A stretch of DNA of 64,000 bases from Acidimicrobiales bacterium. GTDB lineage: Bacteria > Actinomycetota > Acidimicrobiia > Acidimicrobiales > SZUA-35. A program made the translations under genes and the position numbers. Below the pieces are notes generated by a model. It made no database searches, was not told the DNA's origin, and saw only the letters and a list, made by a program, of their open reading frames with translations. The stretch is from assembly GCA_965216655.1 (NCBI GenBank), contig CBDCGP010000005.1, positions 83,329 through 147,328 of the forward strand. The letters run 5' to 3'. Below are positions 42,101 to 60,012 of the stretch, piece after piece (the first letter of the stretch is position 1; the number at the start of each line of letters is the position of its first letter).

Positions 42101-42307
42101 CTCGCCTTCGAAGCTCTCCGACACGACGTCGTAGCCTTCGGTTCGCATGGCGTTGGCCACGTCGGCGGTGGTCTCGATCACGTAGAGGTCAAGGCGTCCT
42201 TGACCACTCATTTCACTTGGCGACCCCTCCGGTGGGTCGGCCGATACCGCCGTGGGCACGGCAAGCATCGCGATGGCCGCAAGTACGGCCAGCAATCGTT
42301 TCAGCAT
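39161..42307 (-). CDS. Large secreted M14-family zinc carboxypeptidase with C-terminal accessory domains
   Basis: 1048 aa with a signal peptide. M14 motifs: SAQHAREW (HxxE), ANPDGYD, VDLNRNF, NYHSAAELLLYG. Confidence 0.85.
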   Translation of the reverse strand: MLKRLLAVLAAIAMLAVPTAVSADPPEGSPSEMSGQGRLDLYVIETTADVANAMRTEGYDVVSESFEGEVVTIEVIMSPGEANKARRAFDLDISLKRNRNGQTTAQAAFEEAENGFEVWRQWGEPGGLKDEMEFLANEYDDLTELITIGQSLNGDDIWAMRVTEKADTKRRGSRPAILNISAQHAREWISPEVNRRLMRHYLENYGTDDRITEILDTTEIWFIIVANPDGYDWTFTEGNRLWRKNLRDNNGDGEITTIDGVDLNRNFATNWGQDNEGSSDNPTSQVYRGTAPSSEPETQALDALMGQYDFSFLVNYHSAAELLLYGTGNQVDSPTPDDLINIAINGTDADPGVEGYDPDLSAELYITNGTTTGHAVGAHGIMAYTPELATCQTATTYDPDDEFGPTYCQDEGRSGFEFPDSEALVQFEFEKNINYQLSIAESAADPANPADSAVLSPAPDFQVDAFTESWGADQEVAVWTRREHKQLRMHYSINGGPEVTKSVPEWGGGQRYGDNGNVWYGEYRATVTGQSEGDSVEVWFTAVDTPSGGGNPAAAKIESEHFTYEVVNTSGAEVLVLADNSPGTALGGLAPLEYVEYYTDALDANGVSYDVLGVDDEVAPHPMGVLNHYDGVIWYTGEKLVTDYQGGLNTTLFAHEMNMNIRDYVNEGGKVLATGKNHGFEEFFPLNYGQNGAPSETCVDNCLILTDDVYQYWFGAFSRSRRGGLAPDGTSYDVAGTGGAFDGYTFSLDGGDSANNQGATDAGLGTGTASFVVTDSILPNEEFPLIAASERLARWETGGGAPFEPVTGDWQVATGHDDVAYKRLATTVDLTGATSATFDFATSYSTEANWDFMFVEARTAGGDDWTTLPDANGHTSQNTGQSCTSGWADQLHPQLFSYQTLNPDGTCSPTGTTGEWHATSGPSAGIEQWSIDLSAYAGSEVEISITFATDWATGDLGVFVDDVSVTANTGTLLETSFEDGLDGFTIPGSPEGSAPNPNDWERVGILFEIASIVATEDTLYFGFGFEGITSEAERTEVMARSLTHLGIG

Positions 42308-42531: not shown

Positions 42532-43581
42532 TCAGGCGACGTCGAGCGGAGCCGTGAGCCGGGTGTCGGCAAGCACGATCCCCCCTCGTTCGCCGACCTC
42601 GACCGAACCGTAGCGTTGGGCGAACACCGGCGGAAGCGTGCGGTCTCCGGGGAGTGACAGCCACATCCGCAGCAGGTGCCGTCGCCGGGCGGGTTCAGCG
42701 TGATCGACGAATGCGGTCCGGTCGTGGAGCAACGAATGGTTGTAGACGAACTGCATGTCGCCCGGCTCTAGGTCCATCGCCAGATACACCTCGGGCCGGT
42801 TGCAGATCTCGTCCCACACGTCGAGCGCTTCGACCTGCTCCGGTTTCAGATGCGGCGCGTCTGCGAAGCGCGACGCCGACTCGATGTAGGTTCGCTGGTA
42901 GAGCACCGTCAGCCTGTCGTCGTGCCACGACAACACCGGGATCTCGAACCAGGGGTCGGCACCAACCGGCACCTCTCCCCGCCGATCGGTGGCGATCGGC
43001 TCGAACAACACCGGCGCCAGATCGGGTCGCTCGTCCACCATGATCCGGTACGCCGTTTCGGCGCTCACCAACAGCGATCGACCACCCGATCGTGCGGTGG
43101 TGCGACAGAGCAGCACGACGCAGTCGGTCGAATCGGTGTGGAAGCTCTGCCGTTCGTTGGTCTGGTAGATGCGGGTGCCCGGGTCGGCAAGATCACCACC
43201 GACGTCTTTGACATGACCGAGGAGATGGCCGGAGGCGTTCTGTGACCGCAGCGTTCCGAGGAGCCGGCCGACGACGAGGAAGCCGACCGCCTCGAGGCGG
43301 CGATCGATCCGGCCGACCGGGTAGCCCTTCAGGAGCGTGAACCCGAGACCGTCGATGAGGTCGGCTCGGATGGCGGCCGCCAGCCGTTGCAGAGACTCGG
43401 GTACATCGGTTCCGAGGTCGAGGGCGGTCAGATCCTCGTCGAGGTGACGACGGGCGAGCGCCAACAGATCGTCGAGTTGTTCGTCGGTCCAGCGCCGGAT
43501 CCAGCGCTCGGGGGACGAGGCGAGGTCCGACCCCATCCAGGTGGCGGGCCGATCGGGAGTCGATGTTGGAGTCGTGGTCAT
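42532..43581 (-). CDS. TauD/TfdA-family Fe(II)/2-oxoglutarate dioxygenase
   Basis: 349 aa. It has the HxD facial-triad motif (SFHTDSTD) and the distal His (NHSLLHDR). Confidence 0.75.
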   Translation of the reverse strand: MTTTPTSTPDRPATWMGSDLASSPERWIRRWTDEQLDDLLALARRHLDEDLTALDLGTDVPESLQRLAAAIRADLIDGLGFTLLKGYPVGRIDRRLEAVGFLVVGRLLGTLRSQNASGHLLGHVKDVGGDLADPGTRIYQTNERQSFHTDSTDCVVLLCRTTARSGGRSLLVSAETAYRIMVDERPDLAPVLFEPIATDRRGEVPVGADPWFEIPVLSWHDDRLTVLYQRTYIESASRFADAPHLKPEQVEALDVWDEICNRPEVYLAMDLEPGDMQFVYNHSLLHDRTAFVDHAEPARRRHLLRMWLSLPGDRTLPPVFAQRYGSVEVGERGGIVLADTRLTAPLDVA

Positions 43582-43597
43582 CGGTCTTGCCGCCTCG

Positions 43598-44542
43598 TCA
43601 CGTGCGGGAGCGGAAGGCGTCGAGAATCTCCGACCCCGATGCCAACCAGACGTCGTCGGGGGCGACCAGCGCTTCCAGCGCCCGACCGAGGGCGGCGATG
43701 CGGTGGGGCTGGCCCGACATCCAGGGGTGGATCGTGACCGAGACGATCCGGCCGTCGGTGGCGGAACTCTCCCGGTGGACGACGGCCATCGCGTCGGTGA
43801 CCTGGTCGACGAACGACTGCTCCGACTGCTGGTAGTGCATCTGAATCGTCTGGTCGTCGAGTTCGTGACTCAACGGCATGGCGTGGATGATCCCATTGGC
43901 CGTGGTCAGCGGGAACGGCATGTCGTCGTTGTACCAGTCGCACACGTACTCGACGCCCCGGGCGGCGAGCAGGTCGAGCGTGTTGCCGGACTCGGACCGG
44001 CCGGGTGAGAGCCAACCGGTGACCGGCTGCCCCGAGGCCGAGCGCAACACCTGCAGAGCCTCGTCGATGAGGGCGGCCTCGGCGTCGACGTCGAGGCCGC
44101 CGTGGTGCAGCGAACCCATGTCGACACCGTTGGCGACGACCTCCCATCCCCGGTCGACCACCTCCCTCATCAGCCGCGGGTACCGCTCCGCCACCTTGGA
44201 GTTGAAACTGACCGACGGTCGCATGCCCATCCGGTCGAGCAGCCTGAACACCCGGAACACACCGACCCGGTTGCCGTAGTCACGCAATGTGTAGTGCCGG
44301 AGGTCCGGATAGGGGGTGACCATGCCGCCCGGCGCCTTGAACGGCTGGGCCGGCTGGTCGAGGGGGAAGAACTCGAGGGCGACGTTCACCCACACGGCGA
44401 CCCGGGCCCCGCCGGGCCACGCGACGGGCTCGCGGTCGTGCATCATCGACCACTCGTACCATCGGTGGCCCATGCCGTGGCCCCGGTTGGCGAACTGCAT
44501 GTAGGAGTCGGGGAGGCCCGGATGCGGCTCGGCCATCGTCAT
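43598..44542 (-). CDS. NodB-homology (polysaccharide deacetylase / PuuE-allantoinase-like) hydrolase, copy B
   Basis: ATG 44542 overlaps the upstream stop (ATGA). It contains RDYGNRVGVFRVFRLLDRMGMRPS and SVTIHPWMSGQPHRI. Confidence 0.75.
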   Translation of the reverse strand: MTMAEPHPGLPDSYMQFANRGHGMGHRWYEWSMMHDREPVAWPGGARVAVWVNVALEFFPLDQPAQPFKAPGGMVTPYPDLRHYTLRDYGNRVGVFRVFRLLDRMGMRPSVSFNSKVAERYPRLMREVVDRGWEVVANGVDMGSLHHGGLDVDAEAALIDEALQVLRSASGQPVTGWLSPGRSESGNTLDLLAARGVEYVCDWYNDDMPFPLTTANGIIHAMPLSHELDDQTIQMHYQQSEQSFVDQVTDAMAVVHRESSATDGRIVSVTIHPWMSGQPHRIAALGRALEALVAPDDVWLASGSEILDAFRSRT

Positions 44543-45513
44543 GCCCCCTCCCCGTTCGCTTCCGCAATGGCGGCCACCGCGGTGTCGTAGTGGTGCTCGT
44601 AGTAGTACTCGGCGATCTCCCGACCGGTGGTGACCCACACGTCGTCGTGGCCGGTGATGTACTCGATCGCCTCCTCGAACGCGCCGATCCGGTGGGGCCG
44701 GCTGACGGCATAGGGATGCAGCGGAATACACATGACCGTCCCGTTCTCCGCGCCGTCGGCGTGGAGCTGGTCGAAGTTGGCCTTCAGCATGTCGGCGTAG
44801 CGTCGGGGCGACTGCTGGTTGACGTTGTAGACGATGATGTCGTTCATCTCGAGCGAATACGGAATGGAGATGAGCCGACCCGAACGAACGTTGACCGGCT
44901 GGGGTTGATCGTCGCAGAACAGGTCGCAGGTGTAGAGAATCCCGTACTCGGCCAGCAGATCCATGGTCCGCTCCGTGTGGGTCAGCGCCGGGGCCAGGTA
45001 CCCGGCGATGCGTTGCCCCGTGGCCCGCTCGACCGTTTCGAGCGAATCCTCGATCACCGCTCGTTCCTGGGCCTCGGTCATCCCGTAGGAGTAGTGGGTG
45101 TTGTAGATGCCGTGGGAGAAGATCTCCCAGTCTCGTTCCAGACAGGCCTCGATCAGCTCCGGATGGTGGTCACAGACCGCCACGTTCAGCGACACGCTGC
45201 CCCGCACCCCATGGCGATCCATGGCCTCCATCATTCGCATCGTGCCGACCCGGTTGCCGTAGTCGCGCAGCGAGTAGTTCAAAACGTCGGGTTCCGTGCG
45301 GGCCCACGCCTTGCGGGTGGGGTTGGGTTGGGGGTGGAGCTCGTAGAACTCGATGTTGGGGGCAACCCAGAACGCCAGTCGGGCCCCGTTCGGCCAAGTC
45401 AGCTTCGGTCGGCCCTCCCACGGCCAGTACTCGTAGAGGCAGGGGTCGGCCGGATCGGAGAACGGCTCGCGCATGGGCACGACGGGGGTGGCGGCCGCTG
45501 AGCCGTCAGTCAT
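44539..45513 (-). CDS. NodB-homology (PuuE-allantoinase-like) hydrolase, copy A
   Basis: ATG 45513. It contains RDYGNRVGTMRMMEAMDRHGVRGS and CIPLHPYAVSRPHRI. It is a paralogue of the downstream gene. Confidence 0.75.
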   Translation of the reverse strand: MTDGSAAATPVVPMREPFSDPADPCLYEYWPWEGRPKLTWPNGARLAFWVAPNIEFYELHPQPNPTRKAWARTEPDVLNYSLRDYGNRVGTMRMMEAMDRHGVRGSVSLNVAVCDHHPELIEACLERDWEIFSHGIYNTHYSYGMTEAQERAVIEDSLETVERATGQRIAGYLAPALTHTERTMDLLAEYGILYTCDLFCDDQPQPVNVRSGRLISIPYSLEMNDIIVYNVNQQSPRRYADMLKANFDQLHADGAENGTVMCIPLHPYAVSRPHRIGAFEEAIEYITGHDDVWVTTGREIAEYYYEHHYDTAVAAIAEANGEGA

Positions 45514-46180
45514 CACCGCCTCCCGACTCGATGTACGCCAGCACATCGGTGAACGGCAACACATCACCGTACTTGAGGGAGATGTCGCACAGGTTGGCGA
45601 AGTGGGGGATCTCGTGTTTGTCGGCCACGCACTCCTCGGGCACGATCGTGCGGTATCCCCGCGACAGGCTGTCGACCACTGCGGCCCGAACGCAACCCGA
45701 GGTCGATCCGCCGGTGATGATCACGGTGTCGACTTGGTGCCACACGAGAAGACTCGACAGCTGGGTCTCGAAGAACGGCGACGGCATCTTCTTCTCGTAG
45801 ATCACGTCCCGCACCCGGTCGACGTCGAGCCGATCGTCGAGCTCCGAGCGACGCGAGCCCCGCTTGATGTTCTGGAGTGAGTTCTCGGTGTCGGTGCGGG
45901 TGCCCCAGATGCCGCAGTCCTCCCCCGACTCCATGTAGGCCACGTAGGTCCAGACCACCGGCCAGCCCCGGGCCCTGGTGGCGGCGACCAGTTGATTGAC
46001 GTAGTCGAGCTGGTTCGGGTCGGTCTGGTAGGCGGTGGGGAACTCGTCGACCCTCGTGTAAGCGTTCTGCAGGTCGACGTTGACCAGTGCCGCCTTCTCG
46101 CCGAACCCGAACCGGGCCCGATTGGGGTTGGCCTTGATCTGTTCGTAGTACTGGCGGGCGGTCAGATCCGACGACTCCAT
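45506..46180 (-). CDS. Isochorismatase-family cysteine hydrolase, copy 2
   Basis: ATG 46180. It contains ALVNVDLQNAY and VIITGGSTSGCVRAAVVDS. Confidence 0.8.
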   Translation of the reverse strand: MESSDLTARQYYEQIKANPNRARFGFGEKAALVNVDLQNAYTRVDEFPTAYQTDPNQLDYVNQLVAATRARGWPVVWTYVAYMESGEDCGIWGTRTDTENSLQNIKRGSRRSELDDRLDVDRVRDVIYEKKMPSPFFETQLSSLLVWHQVDTVIITGGSTSGCVRAAVVDSLSRGYRTIVPEECVADKHEIPHFANLCDISLKYGDVLPFTDVLAYIESGGGDD

Positions 46181-46181
46181 G

Positions 46182-46592
46182 TCATGCTCCTTGGGTGAAC
46201 GTTCGGCTTGGTGGGGGCTGGTAGGGACGATCCCGGTCGATGACCACCGACTCGGCCAGGAGGTAGAACCGGAAGTCGGTGCGGCCGGCCGGCCCCCGCT
46301 CCGGGTCGATCGGGTTCTGCTCGAACCACTCCAGGTAGCGACGGTAGGCGTCGTGGTCGGCGAAGTGGAGTTCCACGATCCGGTAGAAGGTGGCCGGTTC
46401 GGTGGTCGTCTCGGTCCCGGCGCTGGTGGCGGTGATCGGACGCACGATGTCGTCGGCCACCAGTCGGTCGAGGTGGGGGTTGGCCAGCAGATCGGGAAAG
46501 TGGATCTCGGCCAGCCACCGCTCATAGTCTTCGACCGACACGCCGTCGACGATGTCATAGCCGAGAATCGCCTTGACCGCCGGCTCGCTCAT
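46182..46592 (-). CDS. Small EthD/Dabb-like (ferredoxin-fold) protein, tentative
   Basis: ATG 46592 overlaps the upstream stop (ATGA). 136 aa. The family assignment comes from general resemblance only. Confidence 0.4.
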   Translation of the reverse strand: MSEPAVKAILGYDIVDGVSVEDYERWLAEIHFPDLLANPHLDRLVADDIVRPITATSAGTETTTEPATFYRIVELHFADHDAYRRYLEWFEQNPIDPERGPAGRTDFRFYLLAESVVIDRDRPYQPPPSRTFTQGA

Positions 46593-47530
46593 TGCCCGGC
46601 CTCCCGTGCACCCGCTTCGGGCTCGGGTTCGACATCCCCTTCGCCGTGGTCGGCCGCGTTCTCGGCGATGCGGGCCTCCCATGCATTGGCCGCATTCAAT
46701 CCGACCACCTCGTTGACCTCGGCGAAGGTGGCCATGCGGTCGAGCCACGACTCTGTCGAGCCTTCGGTCGAGAGGTCGGCCAGAAGCTGCCGGGCCACCG
46801 GGACCAGCGCCCGGGTCAGGGCCCCCGGGTAGATGACGAGATGGAATCCCAGCTCACCCAACCGCTTCGCCGGCAGGAGCGGCGTCTTGCCGAACTCGAC
46901 CATGTTGGCCATCAGCCGGTGGCCGGCCAGTTCCCGGCCGACCCGCTCCAGCTCGCCCTCGTCCTGTGGGGCTTCGACGAAGAGGATGTCGGCCCCGGCC
47001 GCCGCGTAGCGGGCGGCCCGATCGAGCGCCTCGTCGAGACCGAGCGGGGCACGTGCGTCGGTGCGGGCGATGATGAGCAGCCCGTCATCGCCGGAGCGGG
47101 CGTCGACGGCGGCGGTGATTCGCTGCACCATCTCGTCGGGCCCGACGACGGTCTTGCCCTCGAAGTGACCGCACTTCTTGGGGAAGGCCTGGTCTTCCAG
47201 TTGGACCGCGGCAACCCCGGCCCGCTCGTAGAGCTTCACGGTGCGGGCCACGTTGTGGACCCCGCCGTAGCCGGTGTCGCCGTCGCAGATGACGGGCACG
47301 TCGACAGCGGCGCACACGTGCTCGGCCACCGCCGCCATCTCGGTCTGGGTGACCATGCCGAGGTCCGGTTGGCCGAGCACCGAGTTGGCCACGCCGGCCC
47401 CGCTGAGGTACACGGCCGGGAACCCCTCGGCCTCGATGAGCCGGGCGAACAGGGCGTTGAAGGCACCGGGGGCGACAACAGGCGGGGCGTCGTCGAGCAG
47501 ATTTCGCAGGCGGGCGGCCGGGGTGGTCAT
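46589..47530 (-). CDS. Isocitrate lyase/PEP mutase superfamily C-C lyase, copy 2
   Basis: 313 aa. It contains DGDTGYG and EDQAFPKKCGH. It is a paralogue of 15409-16296. Confidence 0.8.
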   Translation of the reverse strand: MTTPAARLRNLLDDAPPVVAPGAFNALFARLIEAEGFPAVYLSGAGVANSVLGQPDLGMVTQTEMAAVAEHVCAAVDVPVICDGDTGYGGVHNVARTVKLYERAGVAAVQLEDQAFPKKCGHFEGKTVVGPDEMVQRITAAVDARSGDDGLLIIARTDARAPLGLDEALDRAARYAAAGADILFVEAPQDEGELERVGRELAGHRLMANMVEFGKTPLLPAKRLGELGFHLVIYPGALTRALVPVARQLLADLSTEGSTESWLDRMATFAEVNEVVGLNAANAWEARIAENAADHGEGDVEPEPEAGAREAGQ

Positions 47531-47557
47531 CGACGTGCTCCGTTCATCCGATCTCGC

Positions 47558-48082
47558 TCACCGTCGCACCCCTCCGCCGCCGGCGAACAGCGCGGCCAGA
47601 TGGTTCTCCAGGCCCCCGACGGCCAGGATCGAACCGATCTCGTCGGGTAGGGCCACTGCGTTCAGCACCTCGCCGGTGTCGACCACGGTGACGCGGCCCG
47701 CGGCGATGTCGATCGACAGCCGCTGCCCTTCCTCGATGCGATCGGCGGCCGCACACTCGACCGGGGCGAGGCCGACGTTGATGCAGTTCCGGAAGAAGAT
47801 CCGGGCGAAGCTGCGGGCCACGATCGCCCCGACGCCGGCCGCCTGCAGGCCCCTCGGCGCCATCTCGCGACTGGATCCGTTGCCGAAGTTGCGGCCCCCG
47901 ACCACGATGTCACCCGGCGCGATCTCCTGGGCGAAGCCGGGTCGTATGCCGTCCATGACGTGCCTGGCGATCTCGGGGAGGTCGTGGAGGAGGTATTTGC
48001 CCGGCACGATCACGTCGGTGTCGATGTCGTCGCCGAACGTCCACGCTCGACCCTCGATCGATTGACCCACAGAGTCACTCAT
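47558..48082 (-). CDS. Aconitase-family dehydratase small subunit (LeuD-like)
   Basis: ATG 48082, overlapping the large-subunit stop by 8 nt. It contains DDIDTDVIVPGKYL and GRNFGNGSSRE. Confidence 0.8.
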   Translation of the reverse strand: MSDSVGQSIEGRAWTFGDDIDTDVIVPGKYLLHDLPEIARHVMDGIRPGFAQEIAPGDIVVGGRNFGNGSSREMAPRGLQAAGVGAIVARSFARIFFRNCINVGLAPVECAAADRIEEGQRLSIDIAAGRVTVVDTGEVLNAVALPDEIGSILAVGGLENHLAALFAGGGGVRR

Positions 48083-49407
48083 CGTGGCCCCCCGTTCCAA
48101 CGGGCTCGACGTGATCGCCGGTGAGCAGCTCGCGGGGATCGACGATGCGACCGGCGACGGCGGCCGCGGCCACCGCGTAGGGCGATGCCAGGTACAGGCT
48201 GGATTCGGGGCTGCCCATACGGCCCCGGAAGTTGCGGTTCGTGGTGGAGATCGCCACCTCACCAGCGGCGAGGATGCCGGCCCCGATTCCCGGGCAGGCT
48301 CCGCAGCCGGTCGACAGGATGTGGGCGCCGGCCTCCATCAGCGTTGCGGCCGTGCCGTCGGTCATGGCCTGCTGTAGAGCGGCCCGCGAGGCCGGCGCCA
48401 CCTGGAGCACCACGCCGTCGGCCACCCGTCGACCGTGGAGAACCCTCGCCGCCATGGCCAGATCCTCGTATTTGGCGCCGGTACAGGAGCCGATGTAGGC
48501 CCGACCGATGGCCGGTTCCTCCAGCTCGGAGATGGCGACCACGTCGTCGTGTCGATCGGGGCGGGCGACCACCGGCTCGATCGAGGCGGCGTCGTAGCGC
48601 CAGACGTCGGAGAACATGGCGTCGGCATCGCTGACCGGACCCTCTTCGGCGCTGATACCCAGCGCGGCCAGGTGTTCGACGGTGACCGAATCCGCCGGAA
48701 TCACCCCGGTCTTGGCTCCGATCTCGGCGCACATGTTGGTGAGCACGCTGCGCTCCTGCACGCTCATCATGTCGACGGTGGAGCCGGAGAACTCGAGCAC
48801 CTTGTACAAGGCACCGTCCATCCCCCGGTCGCCGATGATGGTGAGGATCAGGTCCTTGGCCGTGACCCCGTCGGGCAGCGAGCCGTCGATGACCACGCTG
48901 ATGGTGTGCGGCACCCGCAGCCACGTGCGACCCGTGGTGACCACACCGAGGATGTCGGTCGAACCGACGCCGAGCGCCAGACAACCCATGACGCCGGCGG
49001 TACAGGTGTGCGAGTCGGAGCCGGTATAGAGCATGCCGGGGCGGGCGTATCCCTTCTCCACCATCAGTGTGTGGGCGATCCCCTGCGCCTCGTGGAAGCG
49101 TTCGATGCCGAACGCGGTGGCGAAGGAGCGGGTGGTCTGGAGGATCTCGGCCGCGGAGACGTTGTTGGCCGGCACGTAGTGGTCGCACACCAGCACGATG
49201 CGGTCGGGGTCCCACACGCCGACGCCGAACCGTTCCATCGCCGGCCAGATCCTCCGAGGACCGCTGGAGTCGTGCATCATCGCCACGTCGACGTCGACCC
49301 ACAGCACTTCATCGACGCCCACGTGATCCCGTCCCGCGGCCCGGGCGATGATCTTCTGGGCCACGGTCATTCCAGATGCCGTCGGCGAGGCTGCCGGCCG
49401 CGTCATC
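48075..49407 (-). CDS. Aconitase-family dehydratase large subunit (LeuC-like); start ATG 49407 or 49370
   Basis: It contains GSDSHT, IGSCTG and STGCGACPG (Fe-S ligand positions), plus TTNRNFRGRMG. Confidence 0.8.
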
Positions 49408-49410
49408 GGG

Positions 49411-50367
49411 TCACGCCTCCGACACGCCTTCGGTCCGAGCGAGCCGCTGCCGGAGTTCGTCGACCTCGGCCTGCAACCGGGCGATGGTGGCCGCATCCGC
49501 CGATCCACCACCGACCAGAGGATCGGCTCCCCACGACGCGTCATCGCCGGCGAGGTCGTCGACGAGATCGTCGTCGTCGCCCTCCTCGGCCGCCATCGGC
49601 GCCCGTTCGAGCACCGCCCGGAGGAAGGCCCGGGTGCGGTCTTCGCGGGGGTTGCCGAGCACCTGCTGGGCCTTCCCCTCCTCGACCACCCGCCCGTGGT
49701 CGATGAACAGCACCCGGTCGGAGACATCGGCGGCAAACCCCATCTCGTGGGTGACCACGATCATCGTCATGCCGTCCTGTGCCAGCCGCTTCATGACCAG
49801 GAGGATCTCGCCGGCCAGCTCCGGGTCGACCGCCGAGGTGACCTCGTCGAACAGCATGACCCGGGGTTCCATGGCCAGCGCCCGGGCGATCGCCACCCGT
49901 TGCTGCTGGCCACCCGACATCTGTAGCGGGTAGTGGTCGGCCCGGTGCGACAGCCCGACCGAGTCGAGCAACTCCTGGGCCCGGGCGACGGCGGCCTTCT
50001 TGTCGACGCCCTTCACCGCCATCGGAGCCTCGATCACATTCTCCAGTGCGGTCATGTGGGGGAAGAGGTTGAAGCGCTGGAAGACCATTCCGACGTCTTC
50101 GCGGATCCGGCGGACCTTGCCTTTCGACGCGAACCGTATTCGGCCATCGGGTCCGTTCTCGCACAGTGCTTGACCGTCGATCTGGATCAAGCCGGCGTCG
50201 GGGCGCTCGAGCAGGTTGATGCATCGCAGGATGGTGGTCTTCCCGGAACCCGACGGACCGATGATCGAGACGACCTCGCCGGCCTCGACGTCGAGGCTGA
50301 TGCCGTCGAGGATCTTCAGGTCCCCGAACCACTTCTCCAGACCGTCGACTCGTACCAGTGGGGCCAT
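49411..50367 (-). CDS. Polar amino-acid-type ABC transporter ATP-binding protein with an acidic/coiled C-terminal extension
   Basis: ATG 50367. It has [26 protein letters not shown] and [11 protein letters not shown]. About 65 extra C-terminal residues follow ([16 protein letters not shown]...[18 protein letters not shown]). Confidence 0.9.
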
Positions 50368-50369
50368 GA

Positions 50370-51026
50370 TCACACCTTCAATCGGAACGTACGCTCGAGG
50401 CCCTGCTGGGCGAGGACGAGCACGGTGGTGAGGGCGAGGTAGATGAGCGCGAGCGCCAGCAGCGGTTCGAGCGCCTTGAAGTCGCGGCTGATGATCCGGG
50501 TCGTGAGCAGCGCCATCTCCGGCACGGTGATCACGGTGGCCAGCGACGTCTGCTTCATCGTGTTGATGGCGTTGCCGATGAACGGCGGCACGATGATCCG
50601 CACACTCTGCGGCAACACGATCTTCCGCATGGCATGCGCCTTGCTCATGCCCAACGCCTCCGCCGCCTCGAACTGTCCCTGGTCGACGGCCAGGATGCCG
50701 GATCGGATCGACTCGGCCTGGTAGCTGGCCGTCCACAGCGACAGCGAGACGACAGCGGCCCAGAACGGCGACAGCAACAGGCTCCGTCCCAGCTCGGGGA
50801 AGGCGAAGAACACGTAGAACATGATGAGGAGCAGCGGCACGCCGCGAAGCAGCCAGGCGTAGAACGCGGCGAACCATCGCAACGGCGCCACCGGCGACAG
50901 CCGCAACAGGGCGAGGGCCAGGCCCAGCACGGTTGATATGAGGATCGACCATGCGAACAGCGACACCGTGGTACCGAGACCATCGAGGATGGCGGGCAGG
51001 ATGTCGGCGATGTAGGCGAAGTCCAT
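50370..51026 (-). CDS. Amino-acid ABC transporter permease (HisM/GlnP type)
   Basis: 218 aa with 5 predicted TM segments. EAA loop: [21 protein letters not shown]. Confidence 0.85.
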
Positions 51027-51032
51027 GGCCGT

Positions 51033-51680
51033 CTACACCTTCACCGCATAGCGACGCTCGAACCAGCTCTGCGACAGCGTCATGAGCGAGGTCACCACGA
51101 GGTAGATCACGCCGGCGGCGGTCAGTATCTCGATCGGCTGGAAGGTGGAGTTGGCCAACTGGCGCGACCGGCCGGTCAGCTCGGTAAGGCCGATGACCGC
51201 GGCCAGCGAGGTCGACTTGAACAGCAGGGTCGAGTTGCTGACGTAGTTGGGGATCATCACCCGGATTCCTTGGGGGATGACAATGCGCCGCATGTAGTGG
51301 GCCCTGGTGAAGCCGAGTGCCTCCGATGCCTCATATTGGCCGGGATCGACGGCCAGCAGGCCGGCCCGGATGATCTCGGCCTTGTAGGCCGCCGACGACG
51401 CGGCCAACCCGAGGATCGCCGACTGGAACGGGCTCCAACCCAGACTGTTGCCAAGCCAGAAGAACGCGAAGAACAGGATCACCAGCGCCGGCAGGCCGCG
51501 AAAGACCCACACGAATGTGGCCGAGAACCACCGCAGCGCCCTGTATCGAGACATGCGCATGAGCGCCAGGATCAGGCCCAGCACCGTGGCCAGCACCAGC
51601 GAGATGACGAACAGTTGGATCGAGATCCAGCTCGCCTCCCAGAAGATGGCGCGGGACCGCCAGACGATGTCCCAGCTCAT
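51033..51680 (-). CDS. Amino-acid ABC transporter permease (HisQ/GlnP type)
   Basis: 215 aa. EAA loop: [21 protein letters not shown]. Confidence 0.85.
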
Positions 51681-51704
51681 CGTCTGGCGCCCCCTGGCGA
51701 ACCG

Positions 51705-52730
51705 TCAGCAATCACCGGCCGGCAGCTCGTCATACGGCTCGGTGGCGTTGATGTCGCTCGGGACCGGGATGCACTGGCCGAACCACGCTTTCTGGATCTC
51801 GGCCAGGGTGCCGTCTTCGATCATCTCGTTGAGCACCACATCGACGGCATCCCGCTTGTCCTCCATCCCGAGCTGGAAGGCCAGGGACAGCGGATGGGCG
51901 GCCACCGTGGGACCGGCGATCGCCAGCTCGTCGTCGTTGGCCGCGGCGAAGGCCGCCACCAGCGAATCCTGGCTGAGGGCATCGACCCGACCCTGCTTGA
52001 GGGCGGTCAACGCCTCACCGGCACCGGCAAAACCGGAGTATTCGGCATAGCCGAGCGCTTCCTCGTTCTCGAGCAGGTAGCCCTCCTGAGAACTGCCCTG
52101 GATACCTCCGGCGTTGAGACCCGAGAGGTCATCGAGGCCGGCCGAATCGGCGTCCTCGGCCCGGACCTGGGCGATGATGCCGGTGGAGGTCATGGGCCGG
52201 GAGAACGCAAAGCTCTCCTGCCGCTCCGGTGTCGGCCAGATACCGGAATCGGCGATGTCGTAGAGGCCCTGCGACAGACCCTCGAGTTCGGCCACGAAGT
52301 CGACGGTCGGCAGTTCGAGCTCCAGGCCGAGACGGTCCGCGATCTCCTTGGCGATATCGATCGTGTAGCCCTCGTTCTCGCCGGTGTCGGGGTTGATGGC
52401 CGTGAACGGCGGGAAGTTGCCCGTGGTTACCACGATCAGCTTGCCCTCCTCGACGAGGCCCGGGACCTCACCGGCTGCGGCGTCGTCGGGTTCCTCGGCA
52501 TCATCGGCCGGTTCCTCGTCCGTGTCTTCGGTCGGCTCGTCGGCGGCTTCTTCGGTCGTGTCGGTCGTTTCCTCGGTCGTGTCGTCCGATTCAGCCGCCG
52601 TGTCATCACCCGCGTCGGTGGCCTCGTCGTCGTCGGAACCGCACGCGGCAGCGATGATCGAGAAGGCGGCCAACAAGGCCAACAGGCGCCAGAGAACGGG
52701 ATTCCCCGACTTCGCTCTCCCTACGTTCAT
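51705..52730 (-). CDS. Family-3 substrate-binding lipoprotein with a long acidic linker
   Basis: 341 aa. It has the lipobox IAAACGSDDD followed by a D/E/T-rich stretch of about 60 aa. An SBP_bac_3-like domain follows (GKLIVVTTGNFPPF, GYTIDIAKEIADRLG). Confidence 0.8.
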   Translation of the reverse strand: MNVGRAKSGNPVLWRLLALLAAFSIIAAACGSDDDEATDAGDDTAAESDDTTEETTDTTEEAADEPTEDTDEEPADDAEEPDDAAAGEVPGLVEEGKLIVVTTGNFPPFTAINPDTGENEGYTIDIAKEIADRLGLELELPTVDFVAELEGLSQGLYDIADSGIWPTPERQESFAFSRPMTSTGIIAQVRAEDADSAGLDDLSGLNAGGIQGSSQEGYLLENEEALGYAEYSGFAGAGEALTALKQGRVDALSQDSLVAAFAAANDDELAIAGPTVAAHPLSLAFQLGMEDKRDAVDVVLNEMIEDGTLAEIQKAWFGQCIPVPSDINATEPYDELPAGDC

Positions 52731-52791
52731 GTCTCATTTCCCCTTTGTTTTGTGACTGTCGTGTGGCTGTGTTGTGGCGACGTCCGCCACC

Positions 52792-53628
52792 CTAGTTCGC
52801 CGCGAGACGACCGTGGAAACCGGTGGGAGCGAGTGCTGCACCGGGCTGCGCGGTCGACATGGCGGTCCAATGGCGGCCCAGATCGCGGGCCGCGTTCTTC
52901 AGTTCGTCGATCACGGTCATCATGTGGTCCAACCGGTCGTCCGGCGCGTAGAGACTGAGGGCGCCGATGGTCGCCCCGTCGTGATCGGTGACGGGGGCGG
53001 CCACGGCCGCCGCACCGTCGACCGTTTCGCTCTCGCTCGAACTCCAGCCCCGCCGGCGGGCGTCGGCCACCAGGCGGTGAACATCGACGCCGTCGGTGAC
53101 GGAATTGCGGCCGAGCGGCCGGCGTTCATCCCGGCCGAGGAGCGCGTCGAGTTCGCCGTCGGACATGCCGGCCATCAACACCCGTCCGACCGCCCCGGAC
53201 CAGAGCGGCGCGCTCCAGCCCCGACCCCTGAGCCAGCGGATCCCGCGCAGACCCTGCACCTCGGCCACACAGGTCCGGTGGTCGCCGGTGCGGACGTGCA
53301 GCGCCGCCGTCTCCTCGCTGATGGTGACGAGACGATGGAGGTACGGCTCGGCGATCGCCCCGAGGGTGGCTCCCCCGCCGTCCAGGGTTGCCGCCAACGC
53401 CAGTTTCGGCGTGAGGGCGTAGCCGCGATCGGCGCCGATCCGGTTGACCACGCCCGACGCCTCGAGCGTGTTGAGAAGGCGATGCACCGTGGAGCGGGGC
53501 AAGTCCAGCTTCTCGGCCACCGTGCGGGCCGAGGGGGGATGGTCGATCTCGGCGATGGCGAACAGCACGTCGAAGGCGCGCGTGACCGACTGCACGAGGC
53601 GGGCGTCGATGGCCGTCGTCTTGTTCAC
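52792..53628 (-). CDS. IclR-family transcriptional regulator
   Basis: GTG 53628 is preceded by GCAGGAG. It has a wHTH (VQSVTRAFDVLFAIAEIDHPPSARTVAEKLDLPRSTVHRLLNTLE) and an IclR effector domain. Confidence 0.8.
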   Translation of the reverse strand: MNKTTAIDARLVQSVTRAFDVLFAIAEIDHPPSARTVAEKLDLPRSTVHRLLNTLEASGVVNRIGADRGYALTPKLALAATLDGGGATLGAIAEPYLHRLVTISEETAALHVRTGDHRTCVAEVQGLRGIRWLRGRGWSAPLWSGAVGRVLMAGMSDGELDALLGRDERRPLGRNSVTDGVDVHRLVADARRRGWSSSESETVDGAAAVAAPVTDHDGATIGALSLYAPDDRLDHMMTVIDELKNAARDLGRHWTAMSTAQPGAALAPTGFHGRLAAN

Positions 53629-53650: not shown

Positions 53651-53702
53651 TGTGTCCACCGTTTGTGTCCACCGCTTGTGTTCACCGCCTGTGTCCATGA
53701 TC
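53651..53702. repeat. Four head-to-tail 13-bp direct repeats TGTGTCCACCGYT (candidate operator array)
   Basis: The copies are 53651-63 TGTGTCCACCGTT, 53664-76 TGTGTCCACCGCT, 53677-89 TGTGTTCACCGCC and 53690-702 TGTGTCCATGATC. They lie in the divergent IclR / flavin-oxidoreductase intergenic region. Confidence 0.85.
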
Positions 53703-53747: not shown

Positions 53748-55784
53748 ATGGCGGTCAACCCCGACCACGAATCGTCACCTGTCGGCGTCGCCTTCACCCC
53801 GGTTCGACTCGGTTCGGTGGAGGTGCGGAACCGGATCTTCGTGCCGGCCCATACCACGAACTTCGGGGTCGACAACCTTCCAACCGACCGCCATGTCACC
53901 TACCACGAGGAGCGGGCTCGGGGAGGTGCCGGACTGATCATCATGGAGTCGCTCCGGGTCCACCCCACCAGTCTCGGCAAGCCCCAGGGCCTGGCCGCCT
54001 TCGACCCGCGGTGTGTGGAACCGCTGGCGAGAATCGCCGAGGCCGTGCACCGCCACGACACGAGGATCTTCGGCCAGATCATCCACTTGGGACGCCAGAT
54101 CGACGGCAATGCCCTCCGCCTCCCGCCGTGGGGTCCGTCCCCCATCGCATGGGACGCCTCGGTTGCCGCTCCCCACGTGATGACCGAGAGCGACATCGCC
54201 GAGGTGGTCGACGGGCATGTGGTCAGCGCCGGCCACGTACTGGCGGCCGGGTTCGACGGGCTGGAAGTACACGTCGGCCACGGCCATCTCCTCCAGCAGT
54301 TCCTGTCGCCGGCCACCAACACCCGCACCGACGGTTACGGCGGCGACGACGCCGGTCGCATGCGATTCGCCGTGGAGGTGCTTCGAGCGGTGCGTGACTC
54401 GGTCGGTCCCGACGTGTGTCTGGGCATACGGATCAGTGCGGATGAGTATGCGGACGGCGGCCTGACCCTGGCCGACATGGAACGGATCGTGCCCGCCATC
54501 GCCGATCAGGTCGAACTCGACTTCGTCAACGTGTCGCACTCGGCCTACCACGGCAGCTACGCCCTCTCGACCCAGATGGCCGACATGACGTTCCCCCGCG
54601 ACATGTTCCGCCACCTGGCCCCCGCCATCGGCCGCAGCCTCAAGGCCGCTGGACACACCATGGCGATCATGGCGGTGTGCAAGTACCGAACGGTGGCCGA
54701 CGCCGAGGAGACTCTGGTCGACGGCGATGTGGACCTCGTCGGCATGGCCCGCGCCCACATCGCCGACCCCGCCCTGGTGAACAAGGCCGTAACGGGGCGG
54801 GTCGACGAGACGAGAACCTGCATCGGCTGCAACCAGGGCTGCGCCGGATTTCTGGAGAAGGGCCTTCCGATCACCTGCGTGGTCAACCCGACGGTCGGTC
54901 GGGAGCGTTCGTGGTCAACCGATCCCGTCGACGATCGGGCCGAGCGGTCGAAGCAGGTGCTGGTGGTGGGCGGCGGACCGGCCGGGCTCGAAGCGGCCTG
55001 GGTGGCAGCGGCCCGAGGTCACCGGGTCGACCTGATCGAGCGAGGTGATCGCCTTGGCGGTCGGATTCGCCTGGTCGACCATCTTCCCAAACGCCGCGAT
55101 TTTCTGACCCTGGTCGACCAGCAGATCGCCGCCTGCGATCGCCACGGGGTGATCGTGCACTGCAACACCGAGTTCGATCCGTCGGCCTTCGCCGAGCGGT
55201 GGGCCGACGGCGACGGCTCCTTCGGTGGCCGCCCCGACCACCTGGTCGCCGCCACCGGGGCCCGCCCCCAACCGTTGGCCTTCCCCGGTGGCGGAACCGG
55301 TCTCACGCTCGATGAGGCGTTGTTGCGTCGCTGGGAGCCAGGCCGGCGGGTGGCGTTCTATGACCTGATGGGAGACTGGTCGTCGCTCGGGGTGGTGGAG
55401 CACCTAGCCGATTCGGGGGTCGACGTCACCTACCTCACACCCGTCGGCGGATGCGGCTGGAAGATCACCGTGTACAGTCGCACGGCTCTGATCTCACGGC
55501 TCCGTCAGGCCCGGGTTGCCGTCGGCCCGCTGCGGTCGGCCGTGTCCTATCGCAACGGCGTGTTCACCGTGGAGGACCTGTCGACAGGCGACCACGAGAC
55601 GCTGGCCGTCGACGCAGTGGTGGCCGCCGGCAACCCGGCCGCCGACGAACTCGGGCACTCGATGGCGGCTCGGCTGGCGGCGGTGTCGCCGGAGACCGCG
55701 GTGACGGTGATCGGCGACTGCCTCGCTCCCCGCTCGTCGCTGGAGGCCGTCTACGAGGGACACCGGGTGGGCCGTGAGCTCTGA
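53748..55784 (+). CDS. OYE-type NADH:flavin oxidoreductase fused to an FAD/NAD(P) domain (2,4-dienoyl-CoA-reductase-like); alternative start 53718
   Basis: It contains RNRIFVPAHTTNF, the Fe-S motif CIGCNQGC and the Rossmann motif VLVVGGGPAGLEAA. Confidence 0.8.
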   Translation: MAVNPDHESSPVGVAFTPVRLGSVEVRNRIFVPAHTTNFGVDNLPTDRHVTYHEERARGGAGLIIMESLRVHPTSLGKPQGLAAFDPRCVEPLARIAEAVHRHDTRIFGQIIHLGRQIDGNALRLPPWGPSPIAWDASVAAPHVMTESDIAEVVDGHVVSAGHVLAAGFDGLEVHVGHGHLLQQFLSPATNTRTDGYGGDDAGRMRFAVEVLRAVRDSVGPDVCLGIRISADEYADGGLTLADMERIVPAIADQVELDFVNVSHSAYHGSYALSTQMADMTFPRDMFRHLAPAIGRSLKAAGHTMAIMAVCKYRTVADAEETLVDGDVDLVGMARAHIADPALVNKAVTGRVDETRTCIGCNQGCAGFLEKGLPITCVVNPTVGRERSWSTDPVDDRAERSKQVLVVGGGPAGLEAAWVAAARGHRVDLIERGDRLGGRIRLVDHLPKRRDFLTLVDQQIAACDRHGVIVHCNTEFDPSAFAERWADGDGSFGGRPDHLVAATGARPQPLAFPGGGTGLTLDEALLRRWEPGRRVAFYDLMGDWSSLGVVEHLADSGVDVTYLTPVGGCGWKITVYSRTALISRLRQARVAVGPLRSAVSYRNGVFTVEDLSTGDHETLAVDAVVAAGNPAADELGHSMAARLAAVSPETAVTVIGDCLAPRSSLEAVYEGHRVGREL

Positions 55785-59942: not shown

Positions 59943-60012
59943 CCGACAGTAACGGACGGGTTCCGCCGTGTCGCATTGCCGGCTGGTCGGACCCCTCGAC
60001 TACCGTCGGACC

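Follow-up and report, generated by a model that had tools for sequence, protein, structure and literature searches.

What could a bacterium degrade with a cluster that places an ATP-binding cassette (ABC) importer, two ring-hydrolase paralogues, an amidase, an aconitase-family hydro-lyase and a C-C lyase beside one regulator? This question is raised by thirteen genes, all on the minus strand, that span positions 42532-53628 of a 64-kb stretch of contig CBDCGP010000005.1 from an Acidimicrobiales bacterium (GCA_965216655.1), hereafter called the window. We propose that the locus serves the catabolism of a small ring compound that is polar and contains nitrogen, most likely a substituted five- or six-membered cyclic imide or amide, a reading to which we give a little less than an even chance. 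An earlier note on this DNA had called the cluster an orphan operon and had known of no characterised pathway with its enzyme set. Both statements stand, as no assignment of this gene set was found in the full-text literature or in RefSeq/PLSDB annotation. The homarine operon homABCDER was considered as an assignment and rejected, since its gene content differs (FAD protein, HomB, peptidase and aldehyde dehydrogenase) (PMC13236597).

Layout and conservation of the cluster

The open reading frame (ORF) listing and the inspection of candidate starts gave the following genes, in order from the regulator; the window has a GC content of ~67%.

52792-53628, minus strand: IclR-family transcriptional regulator, 278 aa, GTG start at 53628
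51705-52730, minus strand: family-3 solute-binding lipoprotein (SBP), 341 aa
51033-51680 and 50370-51026, minus strand: two ABC permease genes, PF00528 in each
49411-50367, minus strand: ABC transporter ATPase of the polar-amino-acid/Ehu type, 318 aa
48075-49406, minus strand: LeuC/HacA-type large subunit of an aconitase-family hydro-lyase, 443 aa
47558-48082, minus strand: LeuD/DmdB-type small subunit of an aconitase-family hydro-lyase, 174 aa
46589-47530, minus strand: ICL/PEPM-superfamily C-C lyase, 313 aa
46182-46592, minus strand: EthD-like small protein with a dimeric alpha+beta-barrel fold (assigned at fold level only), 136 aa
45506-46180, minus strand: isochorismatase-family amidase, 224 aa
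44539-45513, minus strand: PuuE-like CE4 hydrolase paralogue 1 (PDA1), 324 aa
43598-44542, minus strand: PuuE-like CE4 hydrolase paralogue 2 (PDA2), 314 aa
42532-43581, minus strand: TauD/TfdA-family Fe(II)/2-oxoglutarate (2OG) dioxygenase, the last gene, 349 aa

This arrangement of a regulator and twelve further genes agrees with the order described earlier. From IclR to TauD, the junctions measure 61, 24, 6, 2, 4, -8, 27, -4, 1, -8, -4 and 16 nt, which reproduces the reported 61-nt IclR-SBP spacer, the maximum gap of 27 nt and the 8-nt overlaps. Four ATGA overlaps had also been described; all four do start with ATGA, but just two, ICL/EthD-like and PDA1/PDA2, are 4 nt long, and the others are the 8-nt overlaps ATGAGTGA and ATGACTGA, with ATGA at their start. 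Junctions this short argue for translational coupling. A scan for promoters and terminators, uninformative at this GC content, recorded no promoter-like site inside the cluster and a sole terminator-like site on the opposite strand. Families were assigned by Pfam and NCBIfam profile searches with curated cut-offs, and structural relatives were taken from the PDB. Gene content, synteny, family membership and the conservation of catalytic residues were read directly from these comparisons. Pfam confirmed 12 of the 13 family calls of the earlier note, the remaining one being the EthD-like protein.

The complete 13-gene order recurs in contigs L002 (TauD 87% identical) and L003 (78%), in L089/L090 (an 'Acidimicrobiia bacterium' metagenome-assembled genome, MAG) and, as a more distant full cluster, in L088 (TauD 57% and EthD-like protein 67% identical). 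In L091, the contig ends past the EthD-like gene, so that the first nine genes of the order are visible. Because these contigs are independent, the shared order is not a matter of chance, and gene content and synteny uphold the view that this is one coherent cluster for catabolism, equipped with its own importer and IclR regulator. An apparent fusion of lyase and barrel protein in L003 (5956-7284, 442 aa) was dismissed as an assembly frameshift, the C-terminus of the lyase reading out of frame.

PDA1 is the most conserved gene of the module, with thousands of homologues across phyla at 63-84% identity. A PDA1 scan with one genome per GTDB species gave at least 592 loci, and 80 of these were examined in detail. 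They come from Alpha- and Gammaproteobacteria, Burkholderiales, Bacteroidota, Gemmatimonadota, Rokubacteria and Marinimicrobia, at least six phyla in all, and their cultured carriers include Brevundimonas diminuta, Caulobacter endophyticus, Microbulbifer spp., Parahaliea maris, Microvirga brassicacearum and Nitrospirillum iridis. In 73 of 76 loci, PDA1 is directly followed by PDA2, and in 69 of 75 the amidase directly precedes it; these three genes are called the triad below. Among the 43 loci with at least 5 kb on each side, an ICL/PEPM homologue was present within 10 kb in 21 and LeuC in 15. The window's order LeuC-LeuD-lyase-amidase-CE4-CE4 was matched in a subset of loci (e.g., L005, L014, L018, L064 and L023), and carriers of this six-gene core order belong to the Rhodospirillales, the Caulobacterales, the Burkholderiales and the Bacteroidota. 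Three Caulobacterales loci (L062, L067 and L076) have LeuC-LeuD-lyase-CE4-CE4, and their amidase gene is on the opposite strand. Homologues of TauD, the EthD-like protein, the SBP and IclR were found in none of the 80 triad loci; as cluster members, these proteins and the remainder of the ABC importer are specific to Acidimicrobiia-type clusters. The gene-neighbourhood search suggested in the earlier note has thus placed the whole cluster in Acidimicrobiia-type contigs and the core in at least six phyla. Its implication of a unique enzyme combination does not survive, the six-gene core being a widespread conserved module.

The module is also carried on plasmids. On Burkholderia plantarii p1, it is flanked by transposases and accompanied by GntR, LeuCD, a FAD oxidoreductase, the lyase and a major facilitator superfamily transporter, and on Sphingomonas pJE1, it is found with two LeuCD pairs, the lyase, a CoA-transferase and an HMG-CoA-lyase-like gene. 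LeuCD and the ICL/PEPM lyase flank the triad on these plasmids in orders other than that of the window, and the RefSeq/PLSDB annotation of both gives generic product names only.

All ORFs of the 80 loci were clustered and representatives scanned against profiles. The recurrent neighbours comprised CoA-transferase family III (18 loci; best models succinate-glutarate and succinyl-CoA:mesaconate transferases), acyl-CoA dehydrogenase (21), GntR/UTRA regulators (16), enoyl-CoA hydratase (14), aldehyde dehydrogenase (11) and FAD_binding_4 oxidase (10), together with a FAD_binding_2 flavoprotein of the TcuA or fumarate-reductase type and HMGL-like lyases, alongside which Microbulbifer has a RipC/Ccl-like lyase and a MaoC hydratase.

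These observations bear on the view that the genes are merely juxtaposed, i.e. that an amino-acid importer, a spare LeuCD/PrpB pair for branched acids, ureide hydrolases and a sulfonate or other dioxygenase share a place without sharing a pathway. It would be in keeping with TauD homologues of at most 70% identity occurring in unrelated contexts, with lower-pathway genes being absent near many triads, and with co-transcription being a prediction. It is opposed by the overlapping or very short junctions, by the retention of the 13-gene order in L088 at identities down to 57% (TauD) and 67% (EthD-like), and by the retention of the six-gene core order across phyla and on transposon-flanked plasmid segments. 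We regard mere juxtaposition as very unlikely.

Two further protein types were observed near the triad. A protein of ~400 aa, present in 14 loci (e.g., L014 4962-6221 and L062 18836-19996), combines an unknown N-terminal half with a class-I S-adenosylmethionine-dependent methyltransferase domain weakly similar to BioC, CpaM and Tam, and often adjoins an acyl-CoA dehydrogenase, a YciI-like protein and a GlcD-like FAD oxidase. Downstream of the CE4 pair in L014, L018, L040 and L064, which are MAGs of Rhodospirillaceae and Marinimicrobia, lie tandem arrays of three to five paralogues, each of ~330 aa; these proteins have no Pfam or NCBIfam match and look like two-module VOC/glyoxalase proteins, and the arrays of L014, L018 and L064 are broken by a small ORF, of the Rid family in L014.

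Enzymes of the core and their syntenic partners

The two CE4 paralogues both pass PF01522 (PDA2 with E = 3.9e-6) and by homology belong to the CE4/NodB-fold cyclic amide and imide hydrolases, the group of PuuE, BpIH and HxnM. In PuuE, Glu-His-Trp takes the place of the CE4 metal triad, and the PuuE-like BpIH works as a cyclic imidase (PMC11424739). HxnM, a CE4 protein of the HpPgdA-like kind, is the cyclic imidase of the Aspergillus nicotinate pathway, in which an amidase acts next (PMC9304392, PMC8478523). Structure matches of the pair were 3cl6, 1z7a, 3s6o, 3rxz and 3qbu; PDA1 matched the PuuE structure 3cl6 with E = 3.3e-30 and the BpIH-like imidase template 3s6o with E = 1.3e-26. Against the PuuE equivalog TIGR03212 (cut-off 424.6 bits), PDA1 scored 127.4 and PDA2 107.3 bits. 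Neither has the complete Glu-His-Trp triad: PDA1 keeps Glu55, His134 and His266 and carries Asn138 in place of the PuuE Trp (S-H-G-I-Y-N against S-H-G-Y-R-W), and PDA2, aligned with 1z7a, has A-N-G where PuuE carries S-H-G, i.e., Asn for His. These residues would fit a catalytic plus auxiliary pair, and PDA1 and PDA2 probably form a hetero-oligomer.

The amidase (PF00857, E = 5.4e-28) has Asp36 (VNVD), Lys131 (EKK) and Cys163 (TSGCV) aligned with the Asp-Lys-Cys triad of Ami, CSHase and NicF, with Cys163 at the position of the C-to-A mutant in 4l08. Its PDB matches were N-carbamoylsarcosine amidase (4.6e-34), the maleamate amidase Ami 4l07 (8.5e-31) and NicF 3uao (7.5e-23), and it reached no NCBIfam equivalog, RutB and BiuH scoring at most 36 bits. 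We propose from these relatives that it is an amidohydrolase of a half-amide (or N-carbamoyl compound) that would release NH3.

The kinship with maleamate amidases raises the possibility of a lower pathway for a pyridine ring, as in nicotinate degradation, in which the CE4 pair would deacylate an N-formyl- or N-acyl-maleamate in the role of NicD, followed by a NicF-like amidase, hydration by LeuCD and cleavage. Such a route would suit the classical function of CE4 enzymes as N-deacylases (PF01522), the relation of the amidase to Ami and NicF, the placement of LeuD in the 'LeuD/DmdB family' and the relation of the lyase to 2,3-dimethylmalate lyase. It is countered by the lack of any ring-hydroxylating molybdoenzyme, flavin monooxygenase or NicX-type dioxygenase in the cluster or, consistently, in the 80 loci, by the importer being of the amino-acid type, and by PDA1 and PDA2 being of the PuuE type (metal-independent, acting on cyclic amides) and not of the metal-dependent deacetylase type. 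We consider this route improbable.

Both subunits of the hydro-lyase fall into the aconitase/LeuCD family of the archaeal-HacA/DmdAB type. The LeuC-like protein scored 491.9 bits with NF001614 (cut-off 385) and 452.9 with TIGR01343 (cut-off 385.7), retains the Fe-S cysteines Cys308, Cys368 and Cys371, and had the isopropylmalate/citramalate isomerase of M. jannaschii (4nqy, E = 4.7e-106) as its best PDB match; the LeuD-like protein scored 172.6 bits with TIGR02087, 'LeuD/DmdB family' (cut-off 108.95). Scores with the housekeeping models were far lower than their cut-offs (leuC TIGR00170, 206.9 against 560; leuD TIGR00171, 49.2 against 116.25), and by their profiles the two proteins are not the housekeeping LeuCD of leucine biosynthesis. 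The LeuD specificity loop is PGKYLLH in the window; its closest relatives, those of L002 and L003, have YLVH, and triad-linked proteobacterial homologues have PGxY(M/F/L)K, mostly Y(M/F)K. In methanogen HacB/LeuD proteins, a basic residue at this loop position goes with a tricarboxylate substrate and a hydrophobic one with an alkyl substituent. If this rule applies here, the loop residues would mean that the substituent of the diacid differs between lineages.

The lyase (PF13714, E = 1.1e-47) scored 299.1 bits with the PrpB equivalog TIGR02317, below the cut-off of 354.4, and family scans of the cluster detected neither methylcitrate synthase nor methylcitrate dehydratase (the prpC and prpD partners). 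Its PDB matches were petal death protein (PDP, 5e-61), 2-methylisocitrate lyases (MICL, ~1e-56) and the 2,3-dimethylmalate lyase of A. niger (DMML, 3fa3; 3.6e-53), and its P-K-K-C121-G-H segment aligns with PKKCGH of PDP and KRCGH of MICL. As the loop Cys is the catalytic general acid in the ICL/PEPM superfamily (PMC7609661), this loop points to a C-C lyase rather than to a phosphoenolpyruvate (PEP) mutase, and we propose a retro-aldol lyase of a substituted malate. The sequence of hydrolyses, hydration of an unsaturated dicarboxylate and retro-aldol cleavage in the earlier note thereby gains family-level support from the CE4 pair, the amidase triad, the DmdB-type LeuCD and the PKKCGH lyase.

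The same loop bears on phosphonate metabolism, in which a TauD dioxygenase like FrbJ or PhnY* would work with an enzyme of the PEP mutase family. The phosphonate hydroxylase FrbJ is the closest solved relative of TauD after 7n7v, and the lyase matches PF13714, 'PEP_mutase', and the CPEP phosphonomutase model at 240 bits. Set against this, the lyase has the lyase-type catalytic Cys loop and scores higher with PrpB, PDP and DMML than with PEP mutase or phosphonopyruvate hydrolase, family scans found no PhnZ, phosphonatase, C-P lyase or phosphonate-type transporter, and TauD is absent from the widespread core. We rejected this explanation on account of the Cys loop and the lacking partner genes; it is barely conceivable.

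The functional locus extends to about 61.4 kb, and the cluster limits given earlier were too narrow, since the following syntenic genes lie outside them.

53748-55784, plus strand: OYE/FadH-type FMN- and NAD(P)-binding oxidoreductase, ~679 aa (PF00724, PF07992), divergent from IclR
55774-56805, plus strand: NAD-dependent epimerase/dehydratase-type short-chain dehydrogenase/reductase (SDR), 343 aa (PF01370, E = 6e-46), overlapping the OYE gene
57978-58382, minus strand: SnoaL_2-like small protein (PF12680, E = 2.2e-9)
59136-59942 and 58375-59139, minus strand: tandem pair of the Asp/Glu/hydantoin-racemase family (PF01177, ~4e-29 and 2e-29)
59968-61398, plus strand: FAD_binding_2 flavoprotein of the fumarate-reductase/TcuA/L-aspartate-oxidase type, 476 aa (PF00890, E = 5e-46), divergent from the racemase-like pair

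The OYE/FadH gene occupies the same position in L089, L090 and L091 (73-81% identity), and its NCBIfam relatives, all below cut-off, were mycofactocin-type FadH/OYE (576 bits), BaiCD, bilirubin reductase and N-ethylmaleimide reductase; its proposed role, based on these relatives, is that of a C=C reductase acting on the ring or the diacid. The SDR gene, whose overlap with the OYE gene suggests translational coupling, keeps its synteny in L089 and L091 (70-75%), and two unrelated small ORFs separate it from the SnoaL_2-like gene. The latter shares 61% identity with the gene immediately upstream of IclR in L088 and has homologues in the triad loci L027, L038, L078 and L079 and in L085-L087, which carry the EthD-like gene. 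The flavoprotein is 70% identical to its L088 neighbour; homologues of 37-44% identity occur in the triad loci L005, L013, L044, L047, L060 and L070, and in locus L092, from the B. plantarii plasmid, a further one is placed between the LeuD and lyase genes. The partners (OYE, SDR, racemase-like, SnoaL-like and FAD_binding_2) keep their synteny in relatives and turn up again in triad loci of proteobacteria.

The racemase-like paralogues are 54% identical to each other and share 78% and 76% identity with the L088 pair that lies immediately upstream of IclR; such pairs are also found in the triad loci L010 and L061, and most triad loci are without them. A low-confidence model (predicted local distance difference test score, pLDDT, 63) was nearest to allantoin racemase 3qvk (E = 4e-13) and hydantoin racemase 2eq5, with values from 4e-13 to 2e-11. 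A maleate cis-trans isomerase was disfavoured (~1e-5 against 4e-13 for allantoin racemase, from the same weak model). By alignment, both paralogues have Thr79 and Ser186 at what we take to be the positions of the two catalytic Cys residues of hydantoin and allantoin racemases, which suggests that they may not be conventional two-thiol racemases.

With this pair, a hydantoin or ureide pathway has to be weighed. The racemase would act on a 5-substituted hydantoin or an allantoin-like ureide, the PuuE-like pair would open it to an N-carbamoyl compound, the amidase would be an N-carbamoyl amidase yielding an amino or hydroxy acid, CO2 and NH3, and the FAD_binding_2 protein (L-aspartate-oxidase type), LeuCD and the lyase would then process a substituted aspartate or malate skeleton. 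Several resemblances lead in this direction: the allantoinase PuuE is the closest named relative of both CE4 proteins, N-carbamoylsarcosine amidase is the best PDB match of the amidase, the racemase-like model lies nearest to allantoin and hydantoin racemases, and racemase-like pairs adjoin the triad in L088, L010 and L061. Other features run counter to it, as both PuuE scores are far under the equivalog cut-off, racemase-like genes are missing from most triad loci, the paralogues carry Thr and Ser at the presumed catalytic Cys positions, and family scans of the cluster found no urease, allophanate hydrolase, ureidoglycolate-type gene, aminotransferase or ammonia-lyase that could take up an amino-acid or urea product. 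The CoA-dependent modules of other loci, moreover, indicate a dicarboxylate product, not an amino acid, and a ureide explains the dicarboxylate-degrading modules less well than does the imide/amide model. We regard a hydantoin or ureide substrate as the main rival reading, though as rather unlikely.

Importer, regulator, TauD and EthD-like protein

The SBP (PF00497, E = 3.1e-28) has the lipobox AAAC-GS and a long acidic D/E/T-rich linker. Its PDB relatives are generic binders of Gln, Arg and His, so that no ligand can be deduced from them. All components fell under the cut-offs of the Ehu models (EhuA TIGR03005 342.1 against 345.4 bits, EhuC 143.8 against 197, EhuD 142.7 against 205 and EhuB 44 against 191), and the best NCBIfam matches of the permeases were EhuC/EhuD and cystine permease. 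By its profile scores, the importer is related to the ectoine/hydroxyectoine system Ehu and is not itself an Ehu system. The ATPase (PF00005; 317-320 aa in L002, L003, L088 and L089) has a C-terminal extension of ~60 aa (within 49411-49600), with an acidic stretch followed by a coiled-coil-like segment, which is unusual for polar-amino-acid ABC ATPases.

The regulator is an IclR-family member (PF09339, E = 1.1e-13; PF01614, E = 1.3e-23) whose nearest NCBIfam models, PcaR/PcaU and BhcR, were far under cut-off. Two DNA elements accompany it.

52774-52791, minus strand: palindrome GGTGGCG-N5-CGCCAC, found by reading between the IclR stop and the SBP ribosome-binding site
53651-53687, minus strand: three copies of CGGTG(G/A)ACACA (CGGTGGACACA repeats) in tandem, recurring every 13 nt and placed 23-59 nt upstream of the IclR start

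The same arms, as GGTGGCG-N(3-5)-CGCCAC, precede the SBP start in L002 (~775-800) and L003 (~585-605), and L088 has a different palindrome at that place; judging by position, the element could be an operator or an mRNA hairpin. The tandem repeats lie in the divergent intergenic region of IclR and OYE, all other matches in the window are mismatched, and the half-site GTGGACA forms an inverted pair upstream of IclR in L088. These repeats are a candidate operator.

TauD (PF02668, E = 2.1e-30; 107 bits against a cut-off of 27) has H148-T-D150, a downstream H286 (N-H-S-L-L-H286) and an RRRH motif, the facial triad being assigned by inspection. Its nearest PDB relatives were 7n7v, a 'predicted hydroxylase', and then FrbJ 5eqn. 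It was not identified as a taurine dioxygenase, its only NCBIfam match being trimethyllysine dioxygenase (27 bits), and no sulfonate transport or assimilation genes were found in the cluster. TauD is retained in the clusters L002, L003, L088 and L089 (57-87% identity), and homologues of at most 70% identity occupy other contexts: those of 56% and 70% lie beside TauE in L001 and with an M24 peptidase, a Rieske oxygenase and PrpD in L004. TauD was dropped as a neighbourhood probe because these contexts are unrelated, which makes it a poor marker. Since TauD is a lineage-specific addition, neither an early, obligatory place for 2OG-dependent hydroxylation nor the role that the earlier note gave to TauD is supported. 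The subfamily is very abundant in marine metagenomes (clusters of up to 328 members at 55-70% identity), where its contexts include a TauE-like exporter in an alphaproteobacterium and an M24 peptidase/Rieske/PrpD/amidase neighbourhood in another Acidimicrobiia MAG.

The EthD-like protein had no Pfam or NCBIfam match above threshold; with Pfam EthD (PF07110), it reached E = 0.097 and 14.3 bits (cut-off 22). Its 331 homologues, 65-88% identical, are all annotated as hypothetical. An AlphaFold2 model built with 32 homologues (pLDDT 81) has a ferredoxin-like beta-alpha-beta-beta-alpha-beta fold, and the best Foldseek match was 4-methylmuconolactone methylisomerase (MLMI) 3hds (E = 3e-5, TM 0.58/0.67), followed by the EthD-family structures 2ftr and 3bf4, SnoaB and OAC. 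The model suggests membership, at fold level only, of the dimeric alpha+beta-barrel superfamily (EthD, MLMI, ABM, Dabb). In L085-L087, the EthD-like gene follows a CitE/HpcH-type lyase and adjoins CoA-transferase III, PrpD and a SnoaL homologue, and its place after the lyase ties the barrel to a C-C cleavage step. TauD and the EthD-like protein may be substrate-tailoring proteins, e.g., for the oxidative removal or hydroxylation of a substituent.

Two genes further downstream were observed. The first, at 39161-42307 on the minus strand, encodes an M14 zinc carboxypeptidase of 1048 aa that looks secreted and contains an InhA-like MAM domain; it lies 224 nt downstream of TauD, occurs at the same place in L002 (83% identity), is not conserved there in L003, L088 and L089, and is probably a separate transcription unit. 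The second, at 33359-35407 on the minus strand, encodes a GT2 cellulose-synthase-like glycosyltransferase with a PilZ domain. A similar gene at the corresponding distance in L002 indicates that synteny with that genome reaches well past the cluster.

Proposed pathway, known counterparts and meaning

Considering the gene families above, we have arrived at a plausible model for a cyclic imide or amide, in which we infer the substrate class, the order of the steps and the formation of the hetero-oligomer. The ring compound would be imported by the Ehu-like ABC system under IclR control. OYE/FadH and SDR might set the oxidation state of the ring, and the allantoin-racemase-like pair might equalise its stereoisomers for a stereospecific hydrolase, both being optional conditioning steps. 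The PuuE-like CE4 pair, probably as a hetero-oligomer, would hydrolyse the ring to a half-amide, from which the isochorismatase-family amidase would take off the remaining amide nitrogen as NH3, leaving a substituted C4 dicarboxylate of the succinate or maleate type. Where needed, the TcuA-like flavoprotein would desaturate the saturated diacid. The Fe-S hydro-lyase of the LeuCD/DmdAB type would hydrate or isomerise the unsaturated or tertiary-hydroxy diacid to a substituted malate, and the ICL/PEPM lyase, through its KKCGH Cys, would split this into a 2-oxo acid and a carboxylate. The cluster encodes no aminotransferase, deaminase or urea-handling enzyme, which fits nitrogen leaving wholly as NH3 at the amidase step. 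For each proposed step, the protein family concerned offers a characterised precedent.

In other taxa, a CoA-dependent route may take the place of the last steps. In triad loci without LeuCD and the lyase, the recurring genes encode CoA-transferase III of the succinate-glutarate or mesaconate type, acyl-CoA dehydrogenase, a hydratase (enoyl-CoA or MaoC) and a lyase (HMGL or RipC/Ccl). This set would be the thioester version of desaturation, hydration and cleavage of a branched dicarboxylate, and the flavoprotein, LeuCD and the ICL-type lyase would be its free-acid equivalent, with the same chemical logic.

Several points weigh against this model. The amidase and the racemase-like pair would also fit a hydantoin or ureide substrate, and the amidase is, by its structural matches, about equally close to N-carbamoylsarcosine amidase and maleamate amidase. 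As PDA1 and PDA2 deviate from the Glu-His-Trp triad of PuuE, their chemistry may differ. The SBP resembles amino-acid binders, which would not be an obvious choice for an imide. In many triad loci, both lower-pathway variants are missing from the vicinity, and the model does not account for TauD, the EthD-like protein and the SnoaL-like protein.

The cyclic imide or amide model can be compared with several described systems. In the lower half of the Aspergillus nidulans hxn pathway, the ring is reduced and oxidised to a cyclic imide, which a CE4 imidase opens, and an amidase then frees NH3 to give a dicarboxylate, so that OYE, SDR, CE4 imidase and amidase work in the very order proposed here (PMC9304392, PMC8478523). 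All five enzyme kinds of this half (HxnT OYE, HxnW SDR, HxnM CE4 imidase, HxnN amidase and HxnY 2OG dioxygenase) are present in the one locus of the window. The two systems differ in that the amidase is of the isochorismatase family here and an amidase-signature, FAAH-like enzyme in the fungus, and in that two PuuE-type CE4 paralogues stand against one of the HpPgdA type. The window cluster, moreover, has no nicotinate hydroxylase or monooxygenases; it is bacterial, has an ABC importer, and contains LeuCD and the ICL-type lyase for degradation of the product, which are absent from the fungal pathway.

The lower steps resemble the nicotinate fermentation of Eubacterium barkeri, where, as reportedly described by Alhapel et al. 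in 2006, DmdAB and the 2,3-dimethylmalate lyase Dml, an adjacent LeuCD-family hydratase and ICL/PEPM lyase, act in series on a substituted maleate and malate. The nicotinate dehydrogenase, enamidase, B12 mutase and methylitaconate isomerase genes of that pathway are not in the window cluster, and the organisms here are aerobes. The imidase and half-amidase steps are likewise said by Ogawa et al. to convert a cyclic imide via a half-amide to a dicarboxylate in Blastobacter sp. A17p-4, with entry into the tricarboxylic acid cycle; that pathway, compared here by its reported description, is not said to include a dedicated LeuCD/lyase module, transporter or regulator.

With purine catabolism, the cluster shares homology to PuuE and allantoin racemase and the principle of a racemase feeding a stereospecific, metal-independent ring hydrolase. 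It differs in its equivalog scores and altered Glu-His-Trp residues in both paralogues, and in the linkage of the CE4 pair to an amidase and dicarboxylate-degrading enzymes instead; families for urate oxidase, HIU hydrolase, OHCU decarboxylase and allantoate genes were absent both from the window cluster and from the neighbours that recur in the 80 loci. The maleamate step of NicF/Ami involves the same isochorismatase-like family with its Asp-Lys-Cys triad and would correspond to the conversion of a C4 half-amide to a diacid proposed here; identity is moderate, however, and partners of the NicX, NicD and NicE type are missing from the cluster. The TcuA-related flavoprotein and the CoA-transferase, RipC/Ccl-like lyase and MaoC genes beside the triad recall the metabolism of C5 dicarboxylates (itaconate and mesaconate), from which the locus differs in that all scores are below equivalog cut-offs, TcuB and TcuC are absent, and these genes, as neighbours in other taxa, are putative pathway members. 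The recurrence of the TcuA-like flavoprotein and the CoA module suggests a substituted succinate intermediate.

A more specific and quite improbable extension of the model is that the triad, with its LeuCD/lyase or CoA branches, is a bacterial route mineralising monopyrrolic maleimides and succinimides that arise from the photo-oxidation of chlorophyll, heme and bilins. Such monopyrrolic products include methyl-ethyl-maleimide, methyl-vinyl-maleimide and hematinic acid. An OYE-type enzyme would reduce the thiol-reactive maleimide, the racemase-like pair would equalise stereoisomers, the hetero-oligomeric PuuE-like imidase and the half-amidase would release NH3, the TcuA-like flavoprotein would re-desaturate the diacid, the DmdAB-like hydratase would form a dialkyl-malate, and the lyase related to petal death protein would split it. 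Hematinic acid, for example, would yield pyruvate and glutarate, which would explain neighbours such as the succinate-glutarate CoA-transferase and, weakly, glutaryl-CoA dehydrogenase, whose resemblance is weak and stands among those to other acyl-CoA dehydrogenase models. If this route were true, the LeuD loops YMK (proteobacteria) and YLL (window) would go with carboxyethyl and alkyl substituents, respectively.

Every component comes from a known enzyme family, and the locus is not a new kind of biological system. What is noteworthy is the widespread conserved module of an amidase and a CE4 pair, with interchangeable free-acid and CoA-dependent lower branches. The triad is conserved in at least 592 species genomes and on plasmids, from marine, freshwater, soil and plant-associated sources, with generic annotation only. 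The Acidimicrobiia version gathers importer, regulator and tailoring enzymes in one place, which makes it convenient for SBP and IclR ligand screening. A heteromeric PuuE-like ring hydrolase would be an addition to the stereoselective imidases, of which BpIH is already industrial. Assignment of the substrate would annotate thousands of genes and bring to light a source of dissolved organic nitrogen and carbon on which many heterotrophs evidently draw.

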